Source: a virus
Lineage: Duplodnaviria > Caudoviricetes
IMG/VR virus record: IMGVR_UViG_3300037400_003797
Span: 1 to 64,000 of that record
Length of the DNA: 64,000 nucleotides
Direction: 5' to 3' (one strand)
Position numbers and translations under genes: made by a program. This document shows positions 14,910 through 33,632 of this stretch, in pieces. The notes beneath the pieces were generated by a model. The model searched no databases. It saw only the letters and a program-made list of their open reading frames with translations, and had not been told where the DNA came from. The first letter of the stretch is position 1; each line of letters opens with the position of its first letter.

Positions 14910-17000
14910 ATGTCTAATTTGGCAGGAGCGGTAACGCTTGAAAACGAAATCGTGAAAGCGACAGACTTTCAGTATGCTCACGACCAGCAGTATAAGAACA
15001 TTGCGCTTGTACTGAAAACTATTGTATCTGGGAGCGGGCATAACTTCATTCTTGGCGGTTCTGTAGCACCATATACAAACGGCGGAATGAATGTACAGGT
15101 TGACGGCTTGCTTGCGTATTGTGACGCAAACAAGGAAGTAGGAATTGAAACAGAAATGACTAAGCCTGTTTCTGTTGAAGCTGCTGACGACACACTTGAC
15201 CGCAAGGACATTGTGCAGGTTGCTATTTCAGAAGTCGGCTTTGACGAGCAGAGCCGCGCATTTATCGACCCGGACACAAAAGTTAAGACTTTTGAACACA
15301 TCAACACAAAGAAAAAAGTTGTGCTGACTATTTCTGTAAAGAAAGGTTCAAACGGTTCTGAAATTGCGCCTGCAGTTGATGAAGGTTGTGTAAAAATCGC
15401 TGAAATTTCTGTTCCGGCTGGTACTCTTAACATTACATCTGACTTAATTGAGAATGTTTCTTCAAGAGTTGCGGGCGGTGAGAATGTGAATTGGACGGCG
15501 GATAAAGATTCTACTTTTGCGCCGATTTACCTTGCTTCACTCATTCAGAGCTATCTCACACAGCACAATGAGGACGGCACACACAAGGACAATTCCATTG
15601 TTGCGGCAATGCTGAAATTCGGCACTGAATCCGGCTCAATCAATGCAAGCCTTTTGCCTGTTGGCGAGAGCATGACATTGAATAAGGTTTCTCACGAATC
15701 TGTAGAAAGCACAAAAGAGCTTATTAAGGCTATCGTAACTTTCTGCAATGGAGTGTACGCCTACACAAACAATATTTTCTCACGCTATGAATATCTTGAA
15801 GATGTTCCGGCAGCAGTTTCAACAGAAAATATTGATGTAACCGAAGGTGGGGAAACAACTATTGACGGCGTTTCTGTAACAGCAGGTCAGATTGTTTTCT
15901 TGAAAGACCAGACAGACAAAAAAGAAAACGGTCTGTGGGAAGTTCAGACAGGAAGCTGGAACAGAGCAGACGACTACGAAGAATCGACAACAGCCTTTGA
16001 CCACAAACTTGTTTTTGCAGCAGCAGGAACAGTGAATAAGGGGAAGGTTTTCTTTTTGCCGGGCAACACTTACACAATCGGCACTGATGAACTTGATTTT
16101 ACAGAAGCAAACTTCACTTCTGACAAACAGGCTCACAAATTCGTTATGCGTGACGAGAACGGACGCGCAAAAATGGCAGAGCCGGAAGAAGATGATGATA
16201 TTGCCGTAAAGGCTACCGTTAAGGCAGAAGAAGCTGCAAGAAAGGCTTATGAAAAGCAGCTTACAGCACATTATGACAGTTGCGAAGGAAGAAACCTTTT
16301 AACCGTTCTTGGTGTAGAAACTGTAGCCGAGGCTATGGAGATTCTTCACGAAAGATGTAACGGAACAGGAAAGCCGGACTTTTCGGGGCTTCTGATTGGT
16401 GATTATCTTGATTTGCCGTCATTCACTGTAGACGGAACTAGCTATAGTGGTCAGCGTATCGTTATTTCTGGATTCAATCAGTATATCGGTGTCGGTGATA
16501 CGGAAAACACTAAGAATCATATTCTTTGGACTTTCCGTGATGTCGTTCTCAAAAGACAGATGAACACAAGTGATACCAATGCAGGCGGTTATCCTGCTTC
16601 TGCAATGAAAACATTCCTTGAAGGTGTGTTTGCAGCAGGTCTTGCTTCTGCTCTTGGCGGAACTTACATCTATTCTGTAAGACGCGCTACTTCTGTTAAA
16701 GGTTCTACAGCATGGAATAGCTTTACGGTATTCTTGCCAACTACTGTTGAAGTATTCGGAGTTGATACCTACGGTGACGACCAGATTGCTTGGAATACGA
16801 ATGTTCAGTTTCCTATCTTTAGGAATTCTTCTTACTATCGTATTAAGCGTTATAGTGGAAGTAGAGCGTGGTGGTGGCTCGGTACGCCTGGTGCGTCGAA
16901 CTCCACCTCCTTCTGCCATGTCTACGGCCGTGGTAGTGGCGACGGCGTCATTGCAAGTAATACTGATGGCGGCGTTGCGCCCGCTTTCTGTACCTGCTAA
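14910..17000 (+). CDS. Tail fibre/receptor-binding protein, DGR target 1
   Basis: 696 aa; C-terminal WWWLGTP...GGVAPAF C-type-lectin-like end containing VR1. Confidence 0.85.
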   Translation: MSNLAGAVTLENEIVKATDFQYAHDQQYKNIALVLKTIVSGSGHNFILGGSVAPYTNGGMNVQVDGLLAYCDANKEVGIETEMTKPVSVEAADDTLDRKDIVQVAISEVGFDEQSRAFIDPDTKVKTFEHINTKKKVVLTISVKKGSNGSEIAPAVDEGCVKIAEISVPAGTLNITSDLIENVSSRVAGGENVNWTADKDSTFAPIYLASLIQSYLTQHNEDGTHKDNSIVAAMLKFGTESGSINASLLPVGESMTLNKVSHESVESTKELIKAIVTFCNGVYAYTNNIFSRYEYLEDVPAAVSTENIDVTEGGETTIDGVSVTAGQIVFLKDQTDKKENGLWEVQTGSWNRADDYEESTTAFDHKLVFAAAGTVNKGKVFFLPGNTYTIGTDELDFTEANFTSDKQAHKFVMRDENGRAKMAEPEEDDDIAVKATVKAEEAARKAYEKQLTAHYDSCEGRNLLTVLGVETVAEAMEILHERCNGTGKPDFSGLLIGDYLDLPSFTVDGTSYSGQRIVISGFNQYIGVGDTENTKNHILWTFRDVVLKRQMNTSDTNAGGYPASAMKTFLEGVFAAGLASALGGTYIYSVRRATSVKGSTAWNSFTVFLPTTVEVFGVDTYGDDQIAWNTNVQFPIFRNSSYYRIKRYSGSRAWWWLGTPGASNSTSFCHVYGRGSGDGVIASNTDGGVAPAFCTC
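16881..16989 (+). repeat. DGR variable repeat VR1
   Basis: 109-nt ungapped match to TR with 20 mismatches, all at TR adenines. Confidence 0.95.
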
Positions 17001-17015
17001 GGTGCAGAATCTTTA

Positions 17016-17045
17016 ATCTTAAAATCTGGGCGGCGTAATGCCGCC
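17016..17045 (+). promoter_or_regulatory. DGR cis element after VR1 (motif plus hairpin)
   Basis: ATCTTAAAATCT then GGCGGC-GTAAT-GCCGCC. Confidence 0.8.
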
Positions 17046-17100
17046 TTTATTTAGCAATAGAGAAAATACTAAGAATAAATATTTTAGGAGCATAAATAAT

Positions 17101-17613
17101 ATGTCGGTTGTTAAGAATAAGAGAAGTTTATCAAGACTTGAATTTTACAACACAGCAAGAAAATTAAGAATCGACCTTACGAATTGGCTTTTGCGTGATT
17201 TTGGAATCCGCGACAAAGTTTATAAATTTAAAAATGATGATGAACTAGAGAAAACTCTTTATGCAGAATATCCGAAATGGTTTATTGAAAGCACAAGAAA
17301 AACAATGCTGACTATATTAACAAATCTAATGATGAATATTACGGCAGCAAATTCTATCTACCCGATAAACATGACGGAAGTAGATTTAAGGCGTGGAATA
17401 CAGGATAAGGCAATCGCAAATTGCGAGCAGCTTTTACAGGAGCTTATTTACTGCGCTGATGTAATGCCTTTACAGATTTCAAAGCTAGAGCCTTATGCAG
17501 AAATGATAAACAAAGAAATTGCATTGCTGAAAGGCTGGCGAAAAACAACTAACGATATTGGTAAAAGGATAATGACAAAGAATCAAAAAAGTGATACTAT
17601 ATTTCGTACTTAA
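17101..17613 (+). CDS. avd: DGR accessory variability determinant (four-helix bundle)
   Basis: MSVVKNKR start, ANSIYP, LLKGWRK; sits between target gene and TR. Confidence 0.85.
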   Translation: MSVVKNKRSLSRLEFYNTARKLRIDLTNWLLRDFGIRDKVYKFKNDDELEKTLYAEYPKWFIESTRKTMLTILTNLMMNITAANSIYPINMTEVDLRRGIQDKAIANCEQLLQELIYCADVMPLQISKLEPYAEMINKEIALLKGWRKTTNDIGKRIMTKNQKSDTIFRT

Positions 17614-17652
17614 TACTAAAAATAAAAAGTAAAGAAAAATGGGAAACAATCT

Positions 17653-17761
17653 GATACGCCTAATGCGTCGAACTCCACCAACTTCTGCAATGTCAACAAC
17701 AATGGTAATAGCAACAACAACAATGCAAGTAATACTGATGGCGGCGTTGCGCCCGATTTCT
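17653..17761 (+). repeat. DGR template repeat TR
   Basis: Intergenic; 13 AAY triplets; matches VR1 and VR2 except almost only at adenines. Confidence 0.95.
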
Positions 17762-18016
17762 TACGGTGGTCATAAGTGTAGGCTTTTTAGCCGAGCCACC
17801 TTCTTAGAAAGGAGATTGTTTCCTTCCGTGAAAGAACGGTAAACGAGTATCTGACGAGTTCGGGCGGACGCTTCTTGCATGGCATGGGTTGTGTAGTAAT
17901 CCCTTGTTTCATGCCCGGAAACTCTAAGCGGCTTGGTGCTAAAACTACACACCGTTTACAGAAGAGTAGGCGGAAGCCGTGCAGATACATTTTTCTTTTT
18001 TTATTTGAAGGCAACT

Positions 18017-19264
18017 ATGACGAGCAAAGAAAGAAAAGAAGGGCGCAGATTAAGAAGAATCGAAAATCGACAGCGTAAAAAGGCTGATTTTCTTAAACAA
18101 TACAACGATTTTAATTTAGTTACTAATACAGATAATCTTTATCATGCTTTCAAGATGTCTAGGCGCGGTGTAAGCTGGAAAGAAAGCGTACAGCGTTACG
18201 AAAACGATGTCTTGCAGAATATAAACGATACAAAACAAAAACTTTTAAACGGCGAGAGCGTACAGAAAGGCTTTGTTGAATTCCAGATACACGAGCGGGG
18301 TAAAGTCCGCCATATCCGAAGCGTACATATTTCAGAAAGAATCGTACAAAAGTGTTTGTGTGACGAAATTCTTGTACCGATTATTACACGCTCTTTGATT
18401 TACGATAACGGCGCAAGTATAAAAAATAAGGGTATCAGCTTTGCAATGAATCGGTTACGGTGTCATTTGACAAAGTTTTACCGGGAAAATCATTCAAACA
18501 AAGGTTATGCGCTTGTAATTGATTTCTCAAAGTATTTTGACAATATTCTGCATGACAAACTCTTTGAAATGCAGAGAAGCAATCTGACAGACGAGCGGAT
18601 TTTCAATCTTTATAAGAGCTTTATTACTGTCTTTGGTGACGGTATTTCTTTAGGGCTTGGAAGTCAAGTTTCGCAGATTTCGGCTATCTCATATCCGAAC
18701 AAATTAGACCATTATTGCAAGGAAGTATTGAGAATCAAATATTATGGGCGTTATATGGACGATACATATTTGATTCACAGTGATAAAAAGTATCTTGAAT
18801 ATTGTCTTTCAGAGATAAAGAGAATCTGTGATGAATTGGGAATTAAGCTTAATCCGAAGAAAACGCGAATTGTGCCACTTGATGAAGGTTTCTGGTTCTT
18901 GAAGGGAAAATACATCTTGCTTGAATCCGGTAAAATCATTTGCAAGCCTGCTCGTGACGGTGCTTTGCGAATGAGAAGAAAATTAAGAAAGTTCCTCAAA
19001 ATGGTTGAAGAAGGTACGATGTCGCTTTCTGATGTTTACACTTCTTACCAATCATTCAGAAGCCATTTAATGCAGTTTGACAGCTACCACATCGTTCATA
19101 ACATGGATAAATACTATGCTAAACTGTTCGTACATAACTACAGCCTGCTTTATGATGAGCCGAGAATAACGCATAAGAACAGAATATTAAGCGAGCGCAA
19201 CAGGTGCATTGTACCTATCAGTCGTGTTTCAATAAAGAAAATGCCGCTTTTAGCCGGGGTATGA
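18017..19264 (+). CDS. DGR reverse transcriptase
   Basis: IDFSKYFD, LGLGSQVSQ and RYMDD motifs; about 415 aa; no maturase/endonuclease extension. Confidence 0.95.
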   Translation: MTSKERKEGRRLRRIENRQRKKADFLKQYNDFNLVTNTDNLYHAFKMSRRGVSWKESVQRYENDVLQNINDTKQKLLNGESVQKGFVEFQIHERGKVRHIRSVHISERIVQKCLCDEILVPIITRSLIYDNGASIKNKGISFAMNRLRCHLTKFYRENHSNKGYALVIDFSKYFDNILHDKLFEMQRSNLTDERIFNLYKSFITVFGDGISLGLGSQVSQISAISYPNKLDHYCKEVLRIKYYGRYMDDTYLIHSDKKYLEYCLSEIKRICDELGIKLNPKKTRIVPLDEGFWFLKGKYILLESGKIICKPARDGALRMRRKLRKFLKMVEEGTMSLSDVYTSYQSFRSHLMQFDSYHIVHNMDKYYAKLFVHNYSLLYDEPRITHKNRILSERNRCIVPISRVSIKKMPLLAGV

Positions 19265-19278
19265 GTTTAAGAAACTGA

Positions 19279-19385
19279 TTGATTTTTAGTCCTATATATC
19301 GTATAATTTACTATAAAAGGTATTTTGTAGCAACAAAAGCCGCTGGAATGACACTTGAACTGTCTTTCGGCGGCTTTTTTATTTC
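19279..19385 (+). promoter_or_regulatory. Promoter followed by an intrinsic terminator upstream of the lysis region
   Basis: TTGATT-17-TATAAT at 19279-19307; AAAAGCCGC...GCGGCTTTTTT hairpin. Confidence 0.55.
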
Positions 19386-19407
19386 TACAGGAAAAGGACT
19401 TAGGGCA

Positions 19408-20220
19408 ATGTTGGAATTCATATCTAAAAGTACACCGCTTAACCTCATTATCACAGGAATCTTTGTATTGTGCGCGATTTTAATAATCGTAAAGACAATC
19501 AAAGAGTTATCCGTGAAAGTTGGCGACAAGAGTGTTTCTTTTTCGAGCAAGAAAACGCAGTCGGAAATTGTAAAAGTCGTAACTGATTACGCAGATTTTA
19601 AGTACAAGATTAAGGAAGAGCAGGCGGAAGGTGTAAACGACCTGCATTTACAGGCAAAAAGAGTGGTGCAGGTGCAGATTGACCAATATGTAAAGAGAAT
19701 CACAGTTGATTACATGGGAGCGTTAAACAAGAGCGGGGCTGAAAATGCCGGGCTTACTATAAATATTTTCTCGCTTCTCATGCGGATTCTTTATAACGAA
19801 ATGTACAAATTCTGCATGGAGATATACGAAAGGAATCATCTTAAAGACAAGTCGGATTCTGAATTAAAAGAACTTGCAGAAACAAACTATCAGCGGCTTG
19901 CTGACATTTTCCGGGAATTCATGCAGACGAATTGGCTTGATGTAATGGGGGAGTACGAAGTCCTTCATAATATCTGTGTGGCAGAAATAAACTTTGTGCG
20001 GAATATTATGTATCAGATTCTTGCTTCTTTCCGGGATTTGAGCCGTCAAAAATACGAGCTTATCAATACTATCAATGACATAGATTGCAAGGTTAGGGAG
20101 AAAGTACAAAATAATGGCGTTCTTCCCACCAATGCAATCTCAATTCTTTCAGACCTTTACATTCCCGGAACAGGGCTTAACAAAAACAGCGTAGACAGGT
20201 GGCTATCCACAACAAAATAA
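19408..20220 (+). CDS. Membrane-anchored helical protein
   Basis: N-terminal hydrophobic helix; start at ATG 19408. Confidence 0.65.
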   Translation: MLEFISKSTPLNLIITGIFVLCAILIIVKTIKELSVKVGDKSVSFSSKKTQSEIVKVVTDYADFKYKIKEEQAEGVNDLHLQAKRVVQVQIDQYVKRITVDYMGALNKSGAENAGLTINIFSLLMRILYNEMYKFCMEIYERNHLKDKSDSELKELAETNYQRLADIFREFMQTNWLDVMGEYEVLHNICVAEINFVRNIMYQILASFRDLSRQKYELINTINDIDCKVREKVQNNGVLPTNAISILSDLYIPGTGLNKNSVDRWLSTTK

Positions 20221-20236
20221 AACAGGGGGCTAAAAA

Positions 20237-20545
20237 ATGATTGATTCACAGCTTATCTTGAAAATTTGTGTTGCAGCTTTTGCAACTGTAGGAATTGAAG
20301 AGTACATCAAGAACTTTCTGAAAACAGAAAAGACTAAAATCTATGCTCTTATTATGATTCCGCTTTCTCTCGGCTGCTTCTTCGCCATTGAGAAATTGCC
20401 TATCTGGGTTATAGGCGGACTTCTTACAGTCGGTTGTGTGCAGATTGCGTATCAGACAATCATACAGGGATTCAAGGCTGTTATTGACGGTCTTGTAGAT
20501 AAACTAAAGGGAATGGGAAAAGAAAACAATGACAGCCGCGATTAA
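20237..20545 (+). CDS. Putative holin
   Basis: 2-3 hydrophobic helices, charged C-terminus, lysis context. Confidence 0.55.
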   Translation: MIDSQLILKICVAAFATVGIEEYIKNFLKTEKTKIYALIMIPLSLGCFFAIEKLPIWVIGGLLTVGCVQIAYQTIIQGFKAVIDGLVDKLKGMGKENNDSRD

Positions 20546-20819
20546 ACTTCTTCTGATTGTTTGCGCCGTTTTTCTTTTTGCAGCTTTGATTTTCTTCTTT
20601 TTGTGGCGGCTCTCTGTTGGCAAGAGAAAGTCGCAGAAGGAAACGATTGACAAGCTCGTGCAGCAGATAAACGAAGCGAAACAGACGAATTCCGAATTGG
20701 AATACACGATTAGTGTTCTGAAAAAGAACAGGGAGAAAGCAAATGAAAAAATCAATGATGTGCATAATGGCGATGTTCTTGGCAATGCTCTTGATAGGTT
20801 GCACAAGCACAAAGGTTGA
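20529..20819 (+). CDS. Putative inner-membrane spanin (Rz-like)
   Basis: N-terminal TM helix plus coiled coil; overlaps a lipoprotein ORF. Confidence 0.65.
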   Translation: MTAAIKLLLIVCAVFLFAALIFFFLWRLSVGKRKSQKETIDKLVQQINEAKQTNSELEYTISVLKKNREKANEKINDVHNGDVLGNALDRLHKHKG

Positions 20820-21021
20820 GTACATCAAAAAGCCTTATTTGCCGGAATTAAACTTTCCATTTTTTCCCGAATTGTACGGCGATGTAAGAAACCCGGACGA
20901 CACAGTAACAGTGCCGGGGGATTGGATTATACAGATTACTGACTTCCAGATTTACTATGAGGAATTGGAAGATAACTACAACGACTTGAAAAAGAAGTAT
21001 GAGGGAGAGAGTGACAAATGA
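20743..21021 (+). CDS. Putative outer-membrane spanin lipoprotein (Rz1-like)
   Basis: Lipobox LLIGC, Pro-rich, overlapping in another frame. Confidence 0.65.
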   Translation: MKKSMMCIMAMFLAMLLIGCTSTKVEYIKKPYLPELNFPFFPELYGDVRNPDDTVTVPGDWIIQITDFQIYYEELEDNYNDLKKKYEGESDK

Positions 21022-21443
21022 GCATGACATTAACACAGTTCATAAACACATACAAGGGTACGAAAGTCGATTACAAAGACGAAAACTTCAAGGGTGACGG
21101 CTCTTTTCAGTGCGTGGACTTGGCGCGGCAGTATTACAAAGATGTTCTGAATGTTCCGCAGTTTCCGGCTCTCGGTGCTGACGGCGGGGCAAAGGACATT
21201 ATCAAGAATCCGGGCAGCAAGCTGAAAGTCATAAAAGAAGATTTGCTTGCTGATTATTCTGCAGGCGATGTCCTTGTCTGGGGAGCGAGCAAAACAAACA
21301 AATACGGTCATGTCGCTATTCTTGTGGCAATCTATAACACAAAGTATTTCATTGTTCTTGAACAGGACGGTTTCAAGCAGGACGGCGTAAAACTTGCTTT
21401 CAGAAGCCGTGAGAATCTTTTGGGCGGATTGTACAAGGCATAA
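21018..21443 (+). CDS. CHAP-domain endolysin
   Basis: QCVDL, YGHVAI and LEQDG motifs. Confidence 0.85.
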   Translation: MSMTLTQFINTYKGTKVDYKDENFKGDGSFQCVDLARQYYKDVLNVPQFPALGADGGAKDIIKNPGSKLKVIKEDLLADYSAGDVLVWGASKTNKYGHVAILVAIYNTKYFIVLEQDGFKQDGVKLAFRSRENLLGGLYKA

Positions 21444-21503
21444 AGGGAAAAAATGGGCGGTATGCTCATAAATATAAAATGCCTTTAAGGCAGGGGGTAA
21501 AAT

Positions 21504-21854
21504 ATGAAAAAGAATATTCTTCTTATTCTTGGTCTTATTTTCGTCATTGCGGGTGTTGCCGTTGCATACTTCGCAAAATTCGAGCTTGCTGATGTGACAG
21601 GTTTCGCAATCACAATGTTTGGTGCGGGTCTTGCTTCGGCTCAGTTGTGGCAGAAACGCGACACGACAAAAAAGACATGGCTTGCGCTGTTTGCCGTTGT
21701 TTTTGTCGGTCTGGGTGCGTTCCTTCTCGGCTTCGGTCAGTTCAGCAAGGAAACTATGGTCACAGTTATTTCTACCGTGTTTGGTCTTGTAGCGATTATC
21801 GGCGGTCTTATTGTTTCCGCAATACAGTCAAAGAACGCAAAGCAGATTGAATGA
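21504..21854 (+). CDS. Four-TM membrane protein (holin-like)
   Basis: Four hydrophobic segments. Confidence 0.6.
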   Translation: MKKNILLILGLIFVIAGVAVAYFAKFELADVTGFAITMFGAGLASAQLWQKRDTTKKTWLALFAVVFVGLGAFLLGFGQFSKETMVTVISTVFGLVAIIGGLIVSAIQSKNAKQIE

Positions 21855-21872
21855 TTATTTACTAAGGCTTGA

Positions 21873-21912
21873 AAAACCGCTCTCTTTTTGCAAGGGGGCG
21901 GTTTATCTGTTT
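21873..21912 (+). terminator. Hairpin/terminator after lysis genes
   Basis: AAACCGCTCTCTT...AAGGGGGCGGTTT. Confidence 0.55.
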
Positions 21913-21928
21913 TCTTTGAGGTGATTTT

Positions 21929-25050: not shown

Positions 25051-25180
25051 ATTCTCACCTCACAATTATATTATACACAAATTTGTGCAAATTCGCAAAT
25101 AAAAAAGGTGTTTACTACAGATTGTAATGATTGTGGCGGAAATTACTACAATATGATATAATTGTGTAAAGGAGTATGTT

Positions 25181-25378: not shown

Positions 25379-25517
25379 CGGAGTTATCCTCGATTGTAAG
25401 TGACTTGCCACAAAAAGGGCAGGTGTTTTCCAGCTCGTTAGAGCGCGGCAAATGATATTCTCCCGGAGCTGTATCGCCAACAAGAGCCTTACAGGTGTCG
25501 CAATAACATCTCCATTG

Positions 25518-25814
25518 TCAATCGTTTTTCACTTTCTCGATAAAACTTTCAATATCTGTAAGAAGCGTGTCATACTTCTTTTTATAGATGTTTTTTTCTT
25601 TGCCTGTGATAAGGTACTCCACGGAAACATTAAGAAATTGGGCGATTTTTACAGTATCGAATACATCAGGGGCGATGTTTCTTGTGATTCTCCCCCGATG
25701 GGATTGTATATTCATACCGCAAGCGTTACACATTTCAGTTTGCGTAACACCTTTTTCTTTGCAGAGGTCTTTTATTCTGTCATAAACGGCGGCAATTTTT
25801 TCTTCTGTACTCAT
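25518..25814 (-). CDS. XRE-family HTH regulator
   Basis: RIKDLCKEKG...KIAQFLNVSVEYLITG. Confidence 0.85.
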   Translation of the reverse strand: MSTEEKIAAVYDRIKDLCKEKGVTQTEMCNACGMNIQSHRGRITRNIAPDVFDTVKIAQFLNVSVEYLITGKEKNIYKKKYDTLLTDIESFIEKVKND

Positions 25815-25866
25815 AATCGTATTACATATTTATTATCGTATGTTTGGCAATAAAAATCAAGTGAAA

Positions 25867-25959
25867 AATTGTAAAATTACAATTTTTAAAGATAATTTAT
25901 TGACAAAACTTGCAATTTTGCAATATAATAATGATTATAAATTGTATTACTACAATTTA
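25867..25959 (+). promoter_or_regulatory. Promoter with palindromic operator candidates
   Basis: TTGACA(25900)-18-TATAAT; AAATTGTA...TACAATTT inverted repeats at about 25867 and 25940. Confidence 0.6.
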
Positions 25960-26020
25960 AATAAAAAAAGCGGTAGAAACTCTGTCTGCAAACTGAATCT
26001 TCTACCGCAAGGAGTTGCGT

Positions 26021-26866
26021 ATGCAAAACCCAATTAAAGAATCGGCATTAGCCGATACAAGTTTAGCAGAGATTCAAGTTTTTGAAAACTCTGAATTTGG
26101 AAAAGTAAGGACAGTAAGAATTGACAATGAGACTTACTTTGTTGGTAAGGATATTGCAGAGATTCTTGGATTTTCCAATTCAAGAAAAGCGATTGCTGAC
26201 CATGTTGATGATGAAGATAAGGGGGTAACGAATTGTTACACCCCCGGCGGAAAGCAAAATGTAACAATCATCAACGAAAGCGGCTTGTATTCGCTCATTC
26301 TTGGCTCAAAGCTGGAATCCGCAAAGAAATTCAAGCATTGGGTAACAAGTGAAGTCTTGCCGTCAATCAGAAAGACAGGCGGCTACAATGTACCGAAAAC
26401 TTATGCGGAAGCCTTGCAGATTGCGGCAAATCAAGCAAAGCAGATTGAGGAAAAGAACAGGCAGATAGCGCAGATGAAGCCGTCCGCCGATTCTTGGGAA
26501 ACTTACGCCGGGGATATGAAGCAGCGAAGCAAGGAAAAATCTTTCCGTGATGTTGCGAAGCTCTTGGGGCTTACGCCGCAGAAAGCACTTATCAAATGGT
26601 TCTTTGATAACGGCTATATCATGCGTGGCGGTGACGGTTGGACGGCAACCCAGAGGGGAATAGAAAGCGGAATGTTGGTAAATCGCATTATCACGGCGCA
26701 GAACGGACACGCCGGGGAACAATGCAAGGTTACGACATTTGGCATGATGAAGCTCTCCTACTTGAAGGGGGAGGGAACTTTTGACAACTGCATAGCGCAG
26801 GAAAGGACTTTCGGCGAGCGCAGAAAGCCGAGGAATTACCACAGAAAGTCCATTCTGACGGACTAA
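26021..26866 (+). CDS. Phage antirepressor (BRO-N plus ANT/KilA-C-like)
   Basis: FENSEFGKVR, INESGLYSL, VLPSIRKTGGY. Confidence 0.9.
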   Translation: MQNPIKESALADTSLAEIQVFENSEFGKVRTVRIDNETYFVGKDIAEILGFSNSRKAIADHVDDEDKGVTNCYTPGGKQNVTIINESGLYSLILGSKLESAKKFKHWVTSEVLPSIRKTGGYNVPKTYAEALQIAANQAKQIEEKNRQIAQMKPSADSWETYAGDMKQRSKEKSFRDVAKLLGLTPQKALIKWFFDNGYIMRGGDGWTATQRGIESGMLVNRIITAQNGHAGEQCKVTTFGMMKLSYLKGEGTFDNCIAQERTFGERRKPRNYHRKSILTD

Positions 26867-26907
26867 AAGAACAACCCAACGATACATTTTTAAGAGGAGA
26901 TAACGAT

Positions 26908-27180
26908 ATGACTATAGGCGAAATTTACGGAACGGCACTAAAAGTGCAGAATCTTTCCAACGAAGAATGGGATGCGTTCAATTCATTTTTTGACGAGCGC
27001 GATGTAATCAACAACGACATGAAGAAGGAAAACCCGGCTTTGTTCAATGCCCTTTGCCGAATGAAGGAAAATCAAGCGAAGATTGAAACGATTGACGCTC
27101 TTTTCTGCTCATGCGACGGTAAATTTGAGGACAGGACTGTTTCAACAAGTCGGGAACTTGCGATAGCAAGCAATTTTTAA
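26908..27180 (+). CDS. Hypothetical protein
   Basis: GAGGAG RBS, 90 aa. Confidence 0.65.
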   Translation: MTIGEIYGTALKVQNLSNEEWDAFNSFFDERDVINNDMKKENPALFNALCRMKENQAKIETIDALFCSCDGKFEDRTVSTSRELAIASNF

Positions 27181-27210
27181 ACTTTGTAAAAGAGAAGAGG
27201 TCGTGAGAAA

Positions 27211-27474
27211 TCACGACTTCTTCTTCTCAAAGAATTCCTGCACTCTTGCCGTTGCGTTTTCTTGAATTTTGTTCATTGCTTCAAGAGCGTCTTTCTTTGA
27301 AGTTTTGCCGAAAACGCCGATTATAAGCCGGGCGTAAATATCGGTGAAAAGAAAGGCAATGCTTCCGGCTGTACCTTTTGCGAAGTTCTTTTCAATCTTG
27401 CCGTCTTTTACTTTGATTTCAATTTCCGTTTCCTGTACACGGTTAATAAAGTCTTTTACATCAGTCTGTTTCAT
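27211..27474 (-). CDS. Hypothetical protein
   Basis: GGGAG RBS, 87 aa. Confidence 0.65.
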   Translation of the reverse strand: MKQTDVKDFINRVQETEIEIKVKDGKIEKNFAKGTAGSIAFLFTDIYARLIIGVFGKTSKKDALEAMNKIQENATARVQEFFEKKKS

Positions 27475-27489
27475 CTTTATATCTCCCTT

Positions 27490-27609
27490 TTAATATTCCC
27501 AATCGTTTTCCTGTTCAATCCCGCTGATTTCTTCTATGATTGCTCCGATAACGGCAATCGTTATGAACAAGCAGAGAATGACACCGATAAGAATTCCTAC
27601 AAATCTCAT
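27490..27609 (-). CDS. Small single-TM peptide (39 aa, not in ORF track)
   Basis: MRFVGILIGVILCLFITIAV...; GGAGG RBS. Confidence 0.5.
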   Translation of the reverse strand: MRFVGILIGVILCLFITIAVIGAIIEEISGIEQENDWEY

Positions 27610-27611
27610 TT

Positions 27612-28358
27612 CTATTCTGCCTCCTCAAAAAGTGATTGCATTTTAATCTGTTTGTTTTCTTCGATAAGTTCTGATTCATCGAAAAGAGAAGGACAAAAAC
27701 CGCCCTCGCTTTTAAGCCGTTCAATGGCTGGAATGAAGTATTTTCCCCGAAGCTCACAGCCTAAGAAATGCCTGCTTTCATTTCCCGCAACTAAAAGCGT
27801 TGAGCCACTTCCGGCACATGGGTCAAAGACTGTCTGATTAGGTCGTGAATTTTCTATGATAAGCTGCCTTAATAAGTCGTGATTCTTTTCTGTCGGGTGT
27901 AGTTTTCCTGTTCCTTGTGGATATGTAAGCACGGAAGGAATACAGAAGCCGCCAAAATATGCGCCGGGCTTTTTAGTCCATACGGCGTTTTCTACTGAAT
28001 TAAGGTATTCTTTTTCGCCGTTCATTACGCTGGGATTTGTCTTAGCCCATACTAAATGCCGGGTAGGGTATTTTTTTTTCTTAAAGTATGTGAAGATTTG
28101 CGCAAGCTGTTCTATTCCGCAGAATATGACGATTGAGCCTTTTGTTACTTTGTCAACGAGCGGCAAAAACTCTGACAGCTCGAATGTCTTTGTGTCTGCA
28201 TCGCCTTTATCCAGATTCCTTCTATCCATGCCGTTATGTCCGATATTGGTATTAACTTCGCAATATGGTATGTCGGTAAGGGTGAGGTCTACGGAATTCT
28301 TAGGCATATTCTTCATGTATTCTATGCAGTCGCAATGTATGAGCGTGTCAAAGTCCAT
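27612..28358 (-). CDS. N4-C/N6-A DNA methyltransferase (beta class)
   Basis: TDIPY precedes HPTEK and FDPCAGSG. Confidence 0.9.
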   Translation of the reverse strand: MDFDTLIHCDCIEYMKNMPKNSVDLTLTDIPYCEVNTNIGHNGMDRRNLDKGDADTKTFELSEFLPLVDKVTKGSIVIFCGIEQLAQIFTYFKKKKYPTRHLVWAKTNPSVMNGEKEYLNSVENAVWTKKPGAYFGGFCIPSVLTYPQGTGKLHPTEKNHDLLRQLIIENSRPNQTVFDPCAGSGSTLLVAGNESRHFLGCELRGKYFIPAIERLKSEGGFCPSLFDESELIEENKQIKMQSLFEEAE

Positions 28359-28374
28359 TTTGTTTTAGTTCCTT

Positions 28375-29153
28375 CTATTTCTCGTCCAAAAAATCAAATA
28401 GCGTAGGCTGCAAGTGCTGATTCTTCCCGATTACGAAATCACAAATCCAATTTCTAGCGTAATCCGGGTGTATCATTGACCTTTCGCCTCCACATAGTCC
28501 GTTTCCTTTACTTCTTGCGCAGTCGTTTATTACCTTTTGCTTTTTGTCATTCTGATAGCTCCAACCGTGCGTAGGTTCACAGTTTATAAACCAATACGCC
28601 GTAGGCTTTTTGAATACATCACCGCGCTCCATTCTGTTTTTATCTATGAATGTAGGCGGCAAGAAGTTCTGACCAGAAATCAAGTAATTCGGTATAGTTG
28701 CCGGATTCTCGATTATCAGCCGTATTTTCTTTTGGTCGCAGATTGCAACGAACTTATAAAGCAATTCGTGAAATCGCGTCCGTTTTTCAAGCCTGTCAAG
28801 TGCGTATTCGATACGCTCTGTAAGGCTTTTATTAAGTGTTCCGTTCCGCATAAGCGCAAAATCAAGCTGCTGGATTGTTTCAAAGTAAATGCACGGAAAG
28901 AACGCAATAACAAGGTCTTGACAGGAAGAAATAGAATCGAACAAACTTGTCTTGTCTTGTCTTGTCTTGTCTTGTCTTGTCTTAGGGCTTCATACGCCTT
29001 ATCAATTTCAGCGAACAAATCTATTACATGGTCTGTTTCGCCGAATTCGTTTTGTATGTCATAATCCTCTGCTTGAAATCCGAGCTTGCGGAATTCATTC
29101 TTGAATGTTCCGCTTTGCTCGAAAAAGCAATGTACTTTACCTGTAATTTCCAT
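28375..29153 (-). pseudogene. C5-cytosine-methyltransferase-like gene frameshifted at a pentanucleotide repeat
   Basis: FFEQSG in the 5' frame; FFPC, IENP and KKPT in the 3' frame; junction at (CTTGT)7. Confidence 0.75.
28946..28983 (+). repeat. Simple sequence repeat (CTTGT)7 CTT
   Basis: Directly visible perfect tandem repeat. Confidence 0.97.
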
Positions 29154-29155
29154 TG

Positions 29156-30298
29156 CTATTTACTTCCTTTTACATGAACATCAAGAAGCAGATAGCCCTT
29201 GTATGATGATTTTTCGTAAACAAAGCCGTTTGATTCCATTGCAGAGCGGAAATCTTTCATCTGCTGCATTGTGGCTCTCATAAGGATAGGCTCGGAAGCA
29301 ATTCCGCATTGTTTAGCGAGTGTTGCAATAGGCATTGTCACATAGAAGTCAAAGAGTTTTTCTATCGGCTGTTTTGGCTGTTCCGGCTGAACTTCTGTTA
29401 CTTCGTGTGTGCTGAAATCAACATTATAGGTCGGGGCATTTTCTCCGAGTATTTCTTTTTCCTGTTCTACTATCTTTGCCATAGCGTTAGGAGCTTCCGC
29501 CCACTGTTTGTTACGCTCTTCTTCCGCTTTTCTTTCGGCTTCAAGCTGGGCTTTGCGTTCTTCTTCTTCCTGCAGGCGTTTTCTGTTCTCCCGGAGTTCA
29601 GCACCACGGCGCAAGGTTGCCTGTAAATCAAGTGTGGTAAGATACAATTCTTTGAGTGTCGCGGTGTCCTCTCCGAACTGTTCAATGCTCTGTAAGTCGC
29701 CTGTGATACGGTCAATGATATGTGCAATATCATCATGAATCTGTTTTGTTTTGTAGGTTTTGTTAAGCCATTTATCGTTGAAGATTCTTTCAAGCGGAAC
29801 AAGATTGAAGTCGTACACTTTCCAGATGTCGGCAATTTCGGCGCGTTTTGCTTCTTTCTCTCTTCGCTCTTCTTCCTTAACAACGCCGTCAAGCTGAATT
29901 GTGCAGCTTTTGACAAGGTTTACTGATTCGCTTACAAGGTCTTTGAATCCGTTGAAGGGCTGCATCCATTCCTTTTCATAGGCGATACGAGCGTCATTCA
30001 TCTGTTTTGCGAGAGTGTTTAATTTTGCCTTGCGGTCGGCGGCTTTTTTCGGGTTTCCGATATATTCTTCGATTGAGAAGTTATCTGTAAGGGCTTTGAT
30101 TGAATCCCTAATAATCCTTGCGTTTGTTGTCAGAGTTCCGATTTTCATATCGGCAACGAAATTCAATGATTCAATCGGCAAGATTGCGATTTCGTTCTTT
30201 GGCTCTTCTGCCGTAAGTTCTGGCTGAACTACAGTTTCTTTTTCCTGTTCTGTCTGATTCTCTGGAACAAGTACATTCTTTTTTGTTGTTCTAGGCAT
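29156..30298 (-). CDS. DUF1351-like phage protein
   Basis: KAKLN...YEKEWMQPF...IFNDKWLNKT, coiled-coil. Confidence 0.75.
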   Translation of the reverse strand: MPRTTKKNVLVPENQTEQEKETVVQPELTAEEPKNEIAILPIESLNFVADMKIGTLTTNARIIRDSIKALTDNFSIEEYIGNPKKAADRKAKLNTLAKQMNDARIAYEKEWMQPFNGFKDLVSESVNLVKSCTIQLDGVVKEEERREKEAKRAEIADIWKVYDFNLVPLERIFNDKWLNKTYKTKQIHDDIAHIIDRITGDLQSIEQFGEDTATLKELYLTTLDLQATLRRGAELRENRKRLQEEEERKAQLEAERKAEEERNKQWAEAPNAMAKIVEQEKEILGENAPTYNVDFSTHEVTEVQPEQPKQPIEKLFDFYVTMPIATLAKQCGIASEPILMRATMQQMKDFRSAMESNGFVYEKSSYKGYLLLDVHVKGSK

Positions 30299-30314
30299 TG
30301 TGTTTTTCTCCTCT

Positions 30315-30424
30315 AAAAAAAAGAAAGCCGTCTGTATTCTTGCCTCTACAGACGGCTTAAAATGTCGCTTTCACGACACACCGCATAAAGCGGTTTAGAA
30401 AAGGCAAGATATTTTCTAAACCGT
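30315..30424 (-). promoter_or_regulatory. Paired-loop attenuator leader B
   Basis: UCUUGCCU in upstream hairpin versus AGGCAAGA in terminator loop; TTGACA-18-TATGAT at 30463-30492. Confidence 0.7.
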
Positions 30425-30601
30425 TCTATTTACGAATTGCTTTATTAAGCAATTCTAAAGCAATCATATTGCTAAATAGCGTAATTTGTCAATAAGAAAA
30501 TTATGTAATTAAGCAATTTTTAGTTTGATTCTATGTGATTTTCGTATATTTACTATGTTTCCGGGCAATAAAAAAGGCTTGCGATGAAGCAAGCCCTGTT
30601 T

Positions 30602-30910
30602 TCAGTCGTAATATAAAGGCGTATCGTATGATACGCGCAATGTTTTGTTTCTGATTCCTTCGGCGAATTGCGCAAGTCGTTTCTTTCCGTACTCGATTGT
30701 TCCGCCGCTCTGGTAATTGTGTCCGTTCAGAAAAAGCCGCATAAATCCACGGTTCGGAAGTTCTGGAATATCAATCAGAAAGATATAATTTTTACCGATT
30801 CTGATTTCTTCAATCAGCTCATAGCGTTCAAGCTCTTTCTTGTCGTGACAAAGCGGGTAAGCGATTTTCTGCCATTCTTCCCATTTGCCATAGTTGCGGT
30901 TCAGCTTCAT
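30602..30910 (-). CDS. Hypothetical protein
   Basis: MKLNRNYG..., GGAGG RBS; hairpin at about 30570-30600 downstream. Confidence 0.65.
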   Translation of the reverse strand: MKLNRNYGKWEEWQKIAYPLCHDKKELERYELIEEIRIGKNYIFLIDIPELPNRGFMRLFLNGHNYQSGGTIEYGKKRLAQFAEGIRNKTLRVSYDTPLYYD

Positions 30911-30911
30911 G

Positions 30912-31085
30912 TTATGCCTCCGGGAATTCAACCTTTACGACTTTGTGCATATCGTCAGATACGACACCAAGATTAAACCAATTACCCATGTAATATCTAG
31001 CGATACCCTCGCGTCCTACGGCTGCATTGTAATCTGTTGTCATTGTTTCGCCGTTATCGAATGTCACTCTTACTGTGTCTAACAT
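30912..31085 (-). CDS. Small hypothetical protein (57 aa, not in ORF track)
   Basis: MLDTVRVTFDNG...; AGGAG RBS. Confidence 0.6.
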   Translation of the reverse strand: MLDTVRVTFDNGETMTTDYNAAVGREGIARYYMGNWFNLGVVSDDMHKVVKVEFPEA

Positions 31086-31086
31086 A

Positions 31087-31242
31087 TTACGCTCCTATTT
31101 CTGAATAAAAAATCTGGGCAAGGAATTCACCGTTTTTGTAAACATGAAAATCCGTGTGATGAAAAAAGACATTCAGATTCTTTCCAAATTCCTTTTCGCA
31201 GAAACCCAAGACTTTGTTTTTTCTTGATTCTGTAAGTTTCAT
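31087..31242 (-). CDS. Small hypothetical protein (51 aa, not in ORF track)
   Basis: MKLTESRKNK...; AAGGAG RBS. Confidence 0.55.
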   Translation of the reverse strand: MKLTESRKNKVLGFCEKEFGKNLNVFFHHTDFHVYKNGEFLAQIFYSEIGA

Positions 31243-31405
31243 AAGCCACTCCTTGCAAGGTCTGAATCACCCTACATTTATAATATACACTAATATTTTA
31301 TATCTGTCAATTAAAAATGTATATCATAGGTGTAAAAAGTTCAATAATTATGAAATAAATTAAATTATAGTTGCTAAAAATAAAATTATGGTGTATATAT
31401 GAAGT

Positions 31406-31624
31406 ATGGATATTGTAGAATACATCAAGCTGTGTTGCGTGAAAAAAAATGACATTTCTCTTAGGCAGATTGCCTTAAACGCTGGAATATCACCGCAGAA
31501 TCTAAGCAATAAAATTGCAAAAGGTTCTTTCTATCTCCGTGATATTGAAAAAATTGCAGCCGCATTAAATGCGGATTTGGAAATCAAGTTTATTGACCGG
31601 GAAACAGGAAAGGCGATTATATGA
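31406..31624 (+). CDS. XRE/Cro-like HTH regulator
   Basis: SLRQIALNAGISPQNLSNK...EKIAAAL. Confidence 0.8.
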   Translation: MDIVEYIKLCCVKKNDISLRQIALNAGISPQNLSNKIAKGSFYLRDIEKIAAALNADLEIKFIDRETGKAII

Positions 31625-31935
31625 GCGATTTTGATTTCAGTAAGGTTACTTGTGACAATATAAAGTTTATTCCTCAAAAATCACAGTCTATAAAAGACCT
31701 TGAAAAAGAGTACGAAAAGCAGAGTAAATACATCTTAGATAAAATAAATGAAAAATACTCCAACTCTATTATGTCTGACAGAATCAAGCTGCAAAGGCGA
31801 CAGGAACTTATGGGGTTAAAAAGAATGTTTCTTGACCCGATTTCAGAAAGAATCACGCAGCTTGCAAAAGTTGAAGTAAATACTGCAATGATTCAGATTA
31901 GTGTTGATATAGATTTACCAATCTCCGCGACATAA
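31621..31935 (+). CDS. Hypothetical protein
   Basis: Coupled to upstream HTH gene. Confidence 0.6.
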   Translation: MSDFDFSKVTCDNIKFIPQKSQSIKDLEKEYEKQSKYILDKINEKYSNSIMSDRIKLQRRQELMGLKRMFLDPISERITQLAKVEVNTAMIQISVDIDLPISAT

Positions 31936-32202
31936 ATCTATAACATAAGAAGTGTGCTTAGATTCGTCTGTGTGCCAGCCTTGAACTAGGATGCAAATTA
32001 CTTTATCTTCATAAAAAAATACACGCCTAGAGCCTTGATTGTTTTCAAGCGGATAAACATAACATTTTCCATTCTGCTTCAAATCATATTCAGTCAGATT
32101 CTTTTTTATCATGTACTCTCTGATAATATTATCAATCTTTCTAAATGCAAATTGCAGCCGTTTTGAGATTGTATCTTGAATATGTTTTTCAAACTCTGTC
32201 AT
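31915..32202 (-). CDS. Hypothetical protein
   Basis: 95 aa ORF. Confidence 0.6.
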   Translation of the reverse strand: MTEFEKHIQDTISKRLQFAFRKIDNIIREYMIKKNLTEYDLKQNGKCYVYPLENNQGSRRVFFYEDKVICILVQGWHTDESKHTSYVIDLCRGDW

Positions 32203-32548
32203 AAGATTGTTTGTCCTCTAGGTCGCTGTAATAAAAGATTATTTCCTTTCCTTTTGCCTGTGCATAGTGCCATTCTCTGATTGCGCCTTTTGAATTGCGC
32301 CAATCTGGAAGCATGAAGAGAGCGTCACAGCAATCTATAAGCGCGAAGTCGATATGTAAAAATTGCTCGTATGAAAAAAAATCATACTCGCCGATTTTGC
32401 AGGGATTTATGACTTTAAAGCCTTTTTCTGTAAGTATTCTTTCGGCTTCGGCAAACTTTTTTACATAGTTTTCATCACCTGTAATTTTCCCGCTGATGTA
32501 GATAATTTTATTCAATTTCATCTTCCTTGTTTTCGTTTTCACGGTCAA
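32189..32548 (-). CDS. DUF4406-like protein
   Basis: IYISGKITG, VINP, CDALFMLPDWRNSKGA. Confidence 0.8.
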   Translation of the reverse strand: MTVKTKTRKMKLNKIIYISGKITGDENYVKKFAEAERILTEKGFKVINPCKIGEYDFFSYEQFLHIDFALIDCCDALFMLPDWRNSKGAIREWHYAQAKGKEIIFYYSDLEDKQSYDRV

Positions 32549-32624
32549 ACAGATTCAAATATACGGCACTTGCGGCTAGTCCGCCGATTAAGATAACAAG
32601 CACAATAGATATAACGATTTCCAT
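32508..32624 (-). CDS. Small single-TM peptide (38 aa, not in ORF track)
   Basis: MEIVISIVLVILIGGLAASAV... Confidence 0.5.
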   Translation of the reverse strand: MEIVISIVLVILIGGLAASAVYLNLFDRENENKEDEIE

Positions 32625-32627
32625 AGC

Positions 32628-32783
32628 TTAATCCTTGCAAAGCGCGTCTGAAATAAACATTCCGGCAATGTTAAGGCAAATCAGCAGGAATACTTCTAAA
32701 GCCCTGTTGTTTATATTCATCTGTACAAATTCAATGGCAAAACAACCGAATATATAACCGACTGTGAACTTTTTAATTTTCAT
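32628..32783 (-). CDS. Small membrane protein (51 aa, not in ORF track)
   Basis: MKIKKFTVGYIFG...; GGGAG RBS. Confidence 0.5.
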   Translation of the reverse strand: MKIKKFTVGYIFGCFAIEFVQMNINNRALEVFLLICLNIAGMFISDALCKD

Positions 32784-32801
32784 GCGTCACGCTCCCTTTC
32801 T

Positions 32802-32831
32802 TCCCGGCATTACGCCGGGAGATTTCAAGAT
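32802..32831 (-). promoter_or_regulatory. DGR cis element after VR2 (motif plus hairpin)
   Basis: Minus strand ATCTTGAAATC then TCCCGGC-GTAAT-GCCGGGA. Confidence 0.8.
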
Positions 32832-32837
32832 ATGAGT

Positions 32838-33632
32838 TTACTCGCTATCAGCGGTAAACTCGAAAGCGGGCGCAACGCCGCCACCAGTATAACCCGCATA
32901 GCCGCCGCCGCTATAACCGGCGTCGTCGACCGCGCAGAAGTAGGCGGAGTTCGACGCATAAGGCGTTTTCAGCCACCACCACCATGTATCGTTTTCAAAA
33001 GCAAGAGCTTTGATTCTGTTTTTAATCGCCTTGAAGTACGGCATAAAATCCTTGCTGTCCTCATTGAAAACATTGTCTTTTGAGAGCAGGGAAACATTGA
33101 CTTTTCCTGTGTATTCTTTGAGAGCTTTTGCAAAGTGTTTAGCAAGGTAGACACCGAGCGGTGTTTCTTCAAACGGCTTGCCGGATTCTTCATAATCAAC
33201 ATCATGTCTGAAAAGAATATCCTCAAAGTTGAAAACTACACGGCGCGGCTCAACATGAACGGCGGTAATGACAACATTTTCAAGGTCAATTTCGTCAAAT
33301 TCTTCACCTTCACAATCTTTGACGGCTGGAACTTTGAAATGCGGAATAAGAATCTGCTGACCCGCTGTTACATATTTATCAGCTTCGCCGTTGTTACACC
33401 ATTTGCGGAGCATTTGAAAAATTGTTGTAGAATAAACGCCGGGGTGGGCGATAGACATTATTTCAGCGTATTCAACTTTTCGTGATTCAGCCTTTTCTTC
33501 CTGTTCCTCACGAATTCCCGGTTCAGCAATATCAACGGTATAAACATTTCCGTCAAAAGTTTTCTTTTTGGAAATATTCAAAATTTCCGCTCCCAAATCC
33601 TCAATCTGCTGTGCGAGCAATGCAATTTTCAT
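32838..33632 (-). CDS. Remote DGR target 2; C-terminal lectin-like variable domain
   Basis: WWWWLKTP...GGVAPAF end contains VR2; no signal peptide or TM segment seen. Confidence 0.85.
   Translation of the reverse strand: MKIALLAQQIEDLGAEILNISKKKTFDGNVYTVDIAEPGIREEQEEKAESRKVEYAEIMSIAHPGVYSTTIFQMLRKWCNNGEADKYVTAGQQILIPHFKVPAVKDCEGEEFDEIDLENVVITAVHVEPRRVVFNFEDILFRHDVDYEESGKPFEETPLGVYLAKHFAKALKEYTGKVNVSLLSKDNVFNEDSKDFMPYFKAIKNRIKALAFENDTWWWWLKTPYASNSAYFCAVDDAGYSGGGYAGYTGGGVAPAFEFTADSE
32862..32966 (-). repeat. DGR variable repeat VR2
   Basis: 105-nt ungapped match to TR 17656-17760: 22 mismatches at A, 2 at T. Confidence 0.92.

Follow-up and report, generated by a model that had tools for sequence, protein, structure and literature searches.

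A diversity-generating retroelement of a Treponema phage with two targets, a tail fibre and a small DUF6273 protein encoded outside the structural genes

Retroelement cassette and repeats

The 64,000-nt stretch analysed here (hereafter, the window) comprises positions 1 to 64,000 of IMGVR_UViG_3300037400_003797, an IMG/VR virus contig of 80,496 bp with a completeness rating of 100%, and represents most of the 80.5-kb genome of a temperate myovirus whose host is a gut or rumen Treponema. The window contains one diversity-generating retroelement (DGR), which consists of avd, a template repeat (TR), a structured spacer RNA of the RT-2 type, and a reverse transcriptase (RT) gene. Two variable repeats (VR1 and VR2) correspond to this TR. 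VR1 ends the tail fibre gene beside the cassette (target 1), and VR2 ends the gene of a 264-aa protein (target 2) about 15 kb from the TR on the opposite strand. Window coordinates of these features are as follows.

14910-17000 (+): target 1, 696-aa tail fibre; PF19789 (DUF6273) at residues 542-694, E 5.6e-9
16881-16989 (+): VR1, in frame, last 36 codons of the tail fibre gene
17038-17613 (+): Avd-like accessory gene; phrog_3206 'Avd protein of DGR', E 1.9e-7
17653-17761 (+): TR, 35 adenines, 13 AAY codons in the VR frame
17764-18009 (+): structured RNA between TR and RT; Rfam RT-2 RNA, RF03077, full length, 108.2 bits (gathering score 40), E 1.3e-24
17933-19264 (+): DGR reverse transcriptase; phrog_1423 E 1.5e-77, PF00078 E 1.5e-14, YMDD in the translation, ATG start possible at 18014
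32838-33632 (-): target 2, 264-aa soluble protein; PF19789 (DUF6273), predicted C-type-lectin fold
32862-32966 (-): VR2, equivalent to TR 17656-17760, in frame at the 3' end of target 2

Target 1 comes after the baseplate wedge genes (phrog_6 at 12523-13596), and its residues 256-447 match PHROG tail-fibre and virion-protein families. The Avd-like gene had no above-threshold match in Pfam. The TR lies 172 nt upstream of the RT open reading frame (ORF), whose translation contains the motif LGSQVSQ, which we take to be a signature of DGR reverse transcriptases. If the TTG start at 17933 is used, the RT-2 RNA overlaps the first RT codons.

A search of the whole 80,496-bp record returned only three repeat copies (TR, VR1, and VR2), which were compared by three-way alignment followed by ungapped mismatch counts. 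TR and VR1 differ at 20 of 109 nt, and all 20 mismatches are at TR adenines (binomial tail 1.4e-10). Over 32862-32966, VR2 has 24 mismatches to the TR, 22 of them at TR adenines (binomial tail 2.2e-9); the other two (17691 T>G and 17703 T>C) are each synonymous and lie at the third position of an Ala codon. When the full 109-nt frame is counted, VR2 shows 27 mismatches, because three edge positions (17653, 17655, and 17761) fall outside the true VR2 homology of 105 nt. Twenty of the 35 TR adenines are altered in VR1, 22 in VR2, and 13 in both, with different bases in six of these 13. An earlier note on this DNA had given the same adenine counts (20/20 and 22/24) and had described the two VRs as differently substituted, with which our counts agree. 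Its central claim, a single DGR that acts on two targets, of which the second is distant and lies on the other strand, stands on these counts together with the natural variants and shared TR changes described below.

Natural variation in the two targets

All 21 sequencing runs were in the form of contigs, in which minority VR alleles do not show. A protein search yielded 41 homologues of target 2 (190-297 aa, some named Treponema at source), and in 24 of them the scaffold is kept and variation is limited to the VR. The variant set comprised 31 natural variants of the 264-aa protein that are at least 90% identical (90%-identity clusters). All 13 columns matching the AAY codons of the TR vary in this set, with 6-13 residue types each, and four codons with a single adenine have three residue types; no column of residues 1-221 has more than three. 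The earlier note had expected VR2 variation across relatives to fall at TR-adenine positions, which is the pattern found in the 31 variants, and a VR2 that was invariant or varied without adenine bias was not seen.

Five syntenic loci from metagenome-assembled genomes (MAGs) were compared with the window. The TR, VR1, and VR2 are all present in four of these related genomes, and the fifth (G005) has VR2 only. Among the four with a TR, VR1 has no interior non-adenine mismatches, and VR2 has none in three and one in the other. Five non-adenine differences in the TR of G003 are present in both of its VRs, and a 3-nt deletion in the TR of G001 is likewise present in both. Comparison of genomes thus gives direct evidence, in these mirrored TR changes, that both targets receive information from the TR. 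Judged from these comparisons, both targets are almost certainly live and active in nature. One position also bears on the extent of the transfer: TR adenine 17756 reads C in both VRs of the window (Asp to Ala), and the A is kept in VR2 of G001 and in two of the protein variants (P0049 and P0052, which read APDF). Transfer from the TR thus extends to within 5 nt of the end of the homology, if not farther.

Both VRs share the same GC-rich 3' end, GGCGGCGTTGCGCCCG, followed by hairpins.

16986-17009 (+): hairpin directly 3' of VR1, 10-bp stem and 4-nt loop by DNA fold, kept in relatives
about 17028-17045 (+): second hairpin 3' of VR1, overlapping the avd start codon, with a T-rich run after it
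32861-32834 (-): first hairpin directly 3' of VR2, 12-bp stem and 3-nt loop
32820-32802 (-): second hairpin 3' of VR2, 7-bp GC stem

In both flanks, the second hairpin lies about 20-30 nt beyond the first, has a common GTAAT loop, and is kept in relatives; the stems of the two second hairpins differ by compensating changes (GGCGGC/GCCGCC vs CCCGGC/GCCGGG). The 3' flank of VR2 has a DNA fold z of -5.7, and none of 200 shuffled sequences folded equally well. Unlike after VR1 and VR2, no hairpin was found after the TR by DNA fold. The DGR of Bordetella phage BPP-1 also has a GC-rich VR 3' end that is followed by a hairpin. We consider the hairpins and the GC-rich block 3' of the VRs to be candidate homing signals. 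In the usual DGR chemistry, TR RNA would be reverse transcribed with mutagenesis at adenines, and the complementary DNA would home into VR1 and VR2 under the guidance of these 3' cis elements. TR-derived sequence would thereby replace VR1 at the fibre tip and VR2 in the 264-aa gene, 15 kb away on the other strand.

The flank of target 2 in G005 (L008, about 10718-10821) was compared with window positions 16946-17049 and 32904-32801. It has a VR1-type 3' flank, in which the protein ends APAFCTC like the fibre and the first VR1 hairpin is present, and it returns to the VR2 type within GTAATGCC, which is shared by the second hairpins. This mixture of VR1-type and VR2-type flanks points to recombination of one target locus with the other. 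Such exchange, and the two non-adenine changes in the window's VR2, could also be explained if VR2 were a decaying or chance repeat copy, or merely served VR1 as a recombination reservoir, and had no protein function in its own right. We regard this as highly improbable, given that the ORF is intact, that the scaffold is kept in the 41 homologues with variation confined to TR-adenine codons, and that the domain family persists across phages of different bacterial phyla. The chance probability of the adenine bias (2.2e-9) and the TR changes mirrored in VR2 of relatives contradict it as well.

Two further observations concern the repeats. Coupling between VR1 and VR2 was considered as evidence of a shared ligand and rejected, because identity between them at adenine sites is no higher within genomes (13, 21, and 12) than across genomes (10-20) in the three genomes that share a TR. 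In RNA library X15, one contig (depth 4.6) joins TR 17711 to VR2 32934 out of register; as a single low-depth contig joined out of register, it is probably a repeat assembly artefact and was not accepted as a real event.

The second target and its place in the prophage

Target 2 is a small stand-alone DUF6273 (C-type-lectin-fold) protein and not a fibre. Pfam and PHROG searches found no fibre, collar, or immunoglobulin (Ig) domain in it, and it has no similarity to target 1 outside the VR. Its highest Kyte-Doolittle 19-residue mean (KD19) is 0.86, with no hydrophobic stretch and no transmembrane segment; the earlier note had likewise reported neither a transmembrane segment nor a fibre body. 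Acidic residues occur within the first 12 positions. An exhaustive profile search returned 141 representatives, many of them 160-310 aa long and matching residues of about 70-257, showing that the DUF6273 domain fills most of the protein.

The fold was predicted using AlphaFold 2 (AF2). An initial model from 24 sequences was poor in the VR domain (predicted local distance difference test [pLDDT] 61), and a model from an 80-sequence alignment (pLDDT 89.4) was used instead. In this model, residues 1-36 form a helix and a beta-hairpin, residues 41-66 are disordered, and residues of about 68-260 form a compact DUF6273/C-type-lectin fold, in which the variable codons lie on a beta-hairpin at 231-245 (strands 231-235 and 241-245). 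A VIA-wide fold search returned mostly C-type lectin domains, with the N-terminal DUF6273 domain of the IgA peptidase from T. ramosa (9qa6) at Z 13.0, followed by Legionella Lcl (8.1), T. denticola TvpA (2y3c, 7.3), B. ovatus 4eps (7.0), and Mtd (5.0). The C-type lectin fold that had been anticipated for the target C-termini is thus predicted for target 2, and both targets match DUF6273. Foldseek gave no match in the PDB at E <= 0.001 (best 0.028), residues 1-68 gave nothing usable in the ESM Atlas, and a BFVD fold search returned small phage DUF6273 proteins.

The reading that we favour, with a probability of about 0.6, is that target 2 is a non-virion protein with an early or accessory role. 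Several properties of the protein would also suit a virion-associated second receptor-binding protein or adhesin, such as an accessory tip or decoration whose gene lies outside the structural module. Such a protein would dock via the N-terminal helix and beta-hairpin and would widen or switch host or mucosal binding. Target 2 and the fibre tip have the C-type-lectin scaffold and the TR in common, the VR is modelled on a surface beta-hairpin as described for tentaclins and tgt2 proteins, and the BFVD matches include DUF6273-bearing tail-collar and receptor-binding proteins. In addition, residues 1-36 are a small, confidently modelled module that might serve as a docking piece.

The position of the gene points in another direction. 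Target 2 lies in a minus-strand block, convergent to the rightward genes, in the order promoter-like site, leader, 156-aa ORF, target 2, and two tiny hydrophobic ORFs (KD19 2.15 and 2.83); the block also contains DUF4406 and DUF1351 genes and methyltransferases.

34480-34941 (+): CI-type helix-turn-helix (HTH) regulator, divergent from the target-2 operon; PF07022 E 4.3e-9, PF01381
34362-34333 (-): promoter-like site, TTGACA-18-TATTAT, 11/12 consensus matches; pattern only
34284-34253 (-): leader GC hairpin, then a T run to 34244; leader fold z = -4.4; pattern only
33635-34105 (-): 156-aa ORF, first gene of the target-2 operon, with its stop 3 nt before the target-2 ATG
34171 to 24367 (-): extent of the convergent minus-strand block

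The 156-aa ORF had no Pfam, PHROG, or ESM Atlas match, and several neighbours of target 2 have no Pfam or PHROG family. The earlier note had placed target 2 in an accessory operon behind its own promoter and attenuator. The accessory operon behind a promoter-like site is upheld, with target 2 as the second ORF and not the first, and the promoter and attenuator are present as sequence patterns only.

To place target 2 among its relatives, eight lineages were examined: the window lineage, three distant Treponema prophages (from genomes of the same family as that of G004, one of the related genomes above), and four named phages. Gene orders and TR-VR comparisons in the seven other lineages are as follows.

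G019 (48% identity): RecE, DnaQ-like exonuclease, [homologue], RecT
G204 (51% identity): [homologue], RecE, exonuclease, RecT
G161 (32% identity): homologue flanked by SSB and a DnaC-like gene
Shimadzu orf43: between a methyltransferase and Erf/SSB; 15/15 mismatches at TR adenines; hhalign probability 99.4% to the target-2 family profile
Fontainebleau: between Pol I and a helicase; 15/15 mismatches at TR adenines; hhalign probability 99.5% to the target-2 family profile
Dulem virus 34: methyltransferase/rep/DUF4406 region; 15/16 mismatches at TR adenines
Toutatis gp24: early region; likeness to target 2 by DUF6273 annotation and gene context alone

The gene for the small DUF6273 protein is part of an early, DNA-metabolism, or accessory block in 8/8 lineages and of the structural module in 0/8, and the earlier description of target 2 as non-structural holds in this sense, by gene context. 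The small genes of Shimadzu, Fontainebleau, and Dulem virus 34 are themselves adenine-biased DGR targets, and the hhalign results show that the domain family is kept across phages of different bacterial phyla. A homologue is also present in MT835625, a record without annotation and with no RT, and tblastn of two family representatives (P0111 and P0099) against phages gave no match.

Against a second receptor binder, the gene is in the head, tail, or fibre module in 0/8 lineages, its neighbours being recombination, replication, methylase, and accessory genes; the protein has neither similarity to target 1 outside the VR nor a fibre, collar, or Ig domain; and the VR1-VR2 comparison in the three TR-sharing genomes gave no sign of a shared ligand. 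We therefore consider this role less likely than a non-virion one, but it is the main alternative, and published readings of the homologous small targets (PMC10743442; 10.1101/2024.10.15.618418), in the parts of their text available, favour receptor binding. An alternative fibre tip, which the earlier note had also considered, is a possible reading.

The location of the operon in the prophage also bears on the role of target 2. Homology to the window ends at 35032 in all five related loci. In G004, the integrated copy is on a 156,854-bp contig from a Treponema-labelled MAG, and its flank (L039 950-2188) has an ORF that encodes the N-terminal 320 residues of a UvrD/Rep helicase and continues into phage DNA. 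Because of this truncated ORF, the prophage seems to be inserted in or at the host helicase gene. The shared junction, the truncated UvrD-like gene, and the Treponema label of the contig therefore identify the target-2 block as the outermost operon at the prophage end (target 2 at 1.4 kb and the operon promoter-like site at 0.7 kb from the junction) and the host as Treponema. Near-identical phage contigs (L005 and L006) are binned in MAGs labelled Clostridia and Lachnospiraceae; given the integrated copy on the long Treponema-labelled contig, this is probably mis-binning. A tRNA-like 3' fragment at 35043-35064 was dropped as a candidate att core, since ARAGORN found no tRNA in the window and four related loci and the junction is at about 35032.

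This location suggests that target 2 might be a lysogen-expressed, moron-type accessory protein, i.e., a sensor or blocker that is diversified by the DGR, serves superinfection exclusion or a defence encoded by the prophage, and possibly acts with the two tiny membrane ORFs downstream. Its operon is outermost at the prophage end (junction at 35032 in 5/5 loci, truncated UvrD-like gene in the G004 flank), has its own HTH regulator and promoter-like site, and is followed by the two hydrophobic ORFs; intracellular DGR-diversified sensors are reportedly discussed for bacteria (PMC10053308). We rate such a role as unlikely, because the homologues elsewhere lie inside an early lytic operon among recombination and replication genes rather than at the end of a prophage, the other lineages do not share the small membrane ORFs, and no effector domain is present. 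RNA-library contig cover of the window does not discriminate here.

The remainder of the window has the organisation of a temperate phage, and the following genes lie beside the junction.

35184-36437 (+): integrase
36784-37458 (-): S24/LexA-type repressor, beside the integrase

Two repressor-like genes thus flank the prophage junction, the CI-type HTH-only gene (34480-34941, +) facing the target-2 operon and the S24/LexA-type gene (36784-37458, -) by the integrase. The rightward early operon encodes an antirepressor, RecE, a DnaQ-like exonuclease, RecT, ParB, a methyltransferase, a replication initiator, a DnaC-like protein, and SSB. It is followed by terminase, portal, head, tail, baseplate, and fibre (target 1) genes, the DGR, and endolysin. 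A giant ORF (57378-63998, +), which encodes at least 2,207 aa and does not close within the window, comes after a minor head protein with C-terminal matches to DarB-like and virion-protein PHROGs. A PAPS-reductase-like gene (3305-4207, -; phrog_424 E 9.5e-32) belongs to a minus-strand cluster that is located upstream of the tail genes. When 20 kb of window DNA and target 2 were searched against 50,697 phage records, no match was found, and IMG/VR scans with the target-2 protein and with its alignment gave no relatives among 34 and 76 pattern matches.

Known two-target systems and the role of target 2

Remote second targets have been described before (here and below, publications are cited for the parts of their text that were available). 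According to Wu et al. 2018 (PMC5758913), many phage-associated DGRs have one adjacent and one non-adjacent target within 50 kb, and the Treponema denticola DGR serves remote targets in trans. The Shimadzu preprint (bioRxiv 10.1101/575076) places a VR2 in orf43 'of unknown function' and reports reads that show both VRs modified. The earlier note had called the present arrangement unusual, which is overstated in view of these non-adjacent targets and the experimentally diversified orf43; the architecture was already known, and this phage is a further example, in Treponema. Baykov 2023 (PMC10743442) describes tentaclin DGRs with one TR, two targets of C-type-lectin fold, and a hypermutated beta-hairpin, and leaves the role of the second target open. 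DGRs with two DUF6273 targets are described in Baykov 2023, the Egorov 2024 preprint, and a Faecalibacterium prophage paper, which between them either lean to receptor binding for the small target or leave its role open. For viral DGRs in general, the Roux et al. preprint regards the targets as mostly structural and assumes that unannotated ones are unknown structural proteins. We found no published statement of the early-module location of the small DUF6273 target as a recurrent pattern in the literature searched, which did not extend to supplementary files.

A close parallel in layout is Shimadzu (Roseburia), likewise a temperate myovirus with one Avd/TR/RT cassette by the tail target and a second, non-adjacent, small stand-alone DUF6273 target. 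The two phages differ in host phylum (Bacillota vs Spirochaetota here), and BLASTP finds only about 27% identity over 62 residues. Whereas orf43 is on the same strand within the early operon, target 2 is in a separate opposite-strand block at the prophage end and has an extra 66-residue N-terminal part. As in the orf43-like small targets, DUF6273 fills most of target 2, the VR is C-terminal, and the gene has an early/DNA-metabolism location away from the cassette. Toutatisvirus/Lelie (Faecalibacterium) also has a pair of DUF6273 targets, and the preprint places the remote one 17,480 nt from the TR. Its cassette-adjacent target is, however, an Ig-domain, Hoc-like 'tentaclin', whereas the present one is a fibre of P2 gpH position. 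Tentaclins (PMC10743442) likewise use one TR for two C-type-lectin-fold targets and have a hypermutated beta-hairpin, but their C-lec domain and VR are N-terminal and followed by Ig-like domains; in target 2 the VR is C-terminal and no Ig domain is found by Pfam or in the model.

Mtd and TvpA were compared as well. Bordetella BPP-1 (Mtd) has the same Avd, TR, and RT, adenine-specific TR-VR differences, and a C-type-lectin-fold target whose gene has the VR at its 3' end, but a single adjacent target is described, and Mtd is only a weak match (VIA Z 5.0) to target 2, which lacks a trimeric fibre body. Measured against Mtd-like fibres, target 2 has no N-terminal fibre body that we could find, its gene is outside the tail module, and only the VR aligns with target 1. 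T. denticola TvpA is a variable protein of C-type-lectin fold from the same host genus (2y3c, Z 7.3), and that DGR serves its remote targets in trans. The Roux preprint, however, describes TvpA as a cellular protein that is displayed on the surface and belongs to a chromosomal DGR, whereas the DGR here is phage-borne and target 2 has no hydrophobic segment suggestive of an export signal.

If target 2 is a non-virion protein, it would be made early or outside the virion and would bind, in soluble form, a ligand that varies, for example a protein of the host or of a competitor, or a precursor of the cell envelope. The phage would then be diversifying two binding surfaces side by side, one inside the cell and one at the receptor-binding tip. 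The anti-defence or host-takeover function that the earlier note had suggested, and specific binding of a host factor, are tentative hypotheses. It is also possible, and we put it forward with similar caution, that target 2 represents a conserved non-virion second arm of dual-target phage DGRs, i.e., a family of small, soluble, early DUF6273 proteins, with genes next to those for recombination and replication, that phages infecting unrelated gut bacteria would hypermutate alongside the receptor-binding protein.

Several points weigh against the non-virion reading. Gene position is a weak guide to virion membership, known receptor-binding DGR targets (Mtd and TvpA) share the modelled fold, and the closest solved DUF6273 domain (9qa6) belongs to a secreted protein. 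Baykov 2023 (PMC10743442) and the Egorov 2024 preprint (10.1101/2024.10.15.618418) prefer a receptor-binding role for the small target. Across the lineages, target 2 is not accompanied by any conserved partner or effector gene. Diversification is not universal in the family, because no TR or DGR-type RT was found in G019 and G204, both of which are incomplete MAGs; in G161, an RT lies 11 kb away and the TR-like repeat is degenerate (14/27 mismatches at adenines). The two synonymous non-adenine changes suggest that the VR2 allele of the window may not have been rewritten recently. Contigs of four RNA libraries cover target 2 in X15, X16, and X19 (sparsely in X19) and structural genes also in X15 and X16. 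DNA carry-over is possible and contigs do not show transcription, and this cover of structural and accessory regions gives no expression signal.

The DGR itself is a standard element and the two-target layout is already known; the Treponema phage case sharpens the question of what phages diversify besides fibres. Phage DGRs have been read almost wholly as host-range devices acting on virion proteins, and this phage has a second target, almost certainly active in nature, outside the structural genes. The comparison links target 2 to small DUF6273 homologues of Shimadzu, Fontainebleau, and Dulem virus 34, whose genes are all found among early DNA-metabolism genes. Because Shimadzu and Lelie, the relative of Toutatis, are inducible from cultured hosts according to the available text of the published accounts, what a phage gains from hypermutating a non-virion protein is a directly testable question. 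If the non-virion reading is true, programmed hypermutation would adapt an intracellular binder, for example one that inhibits, or acts as a decoy for, variable defence proteins or nucleases of the host, and would not serve adsorption alone.

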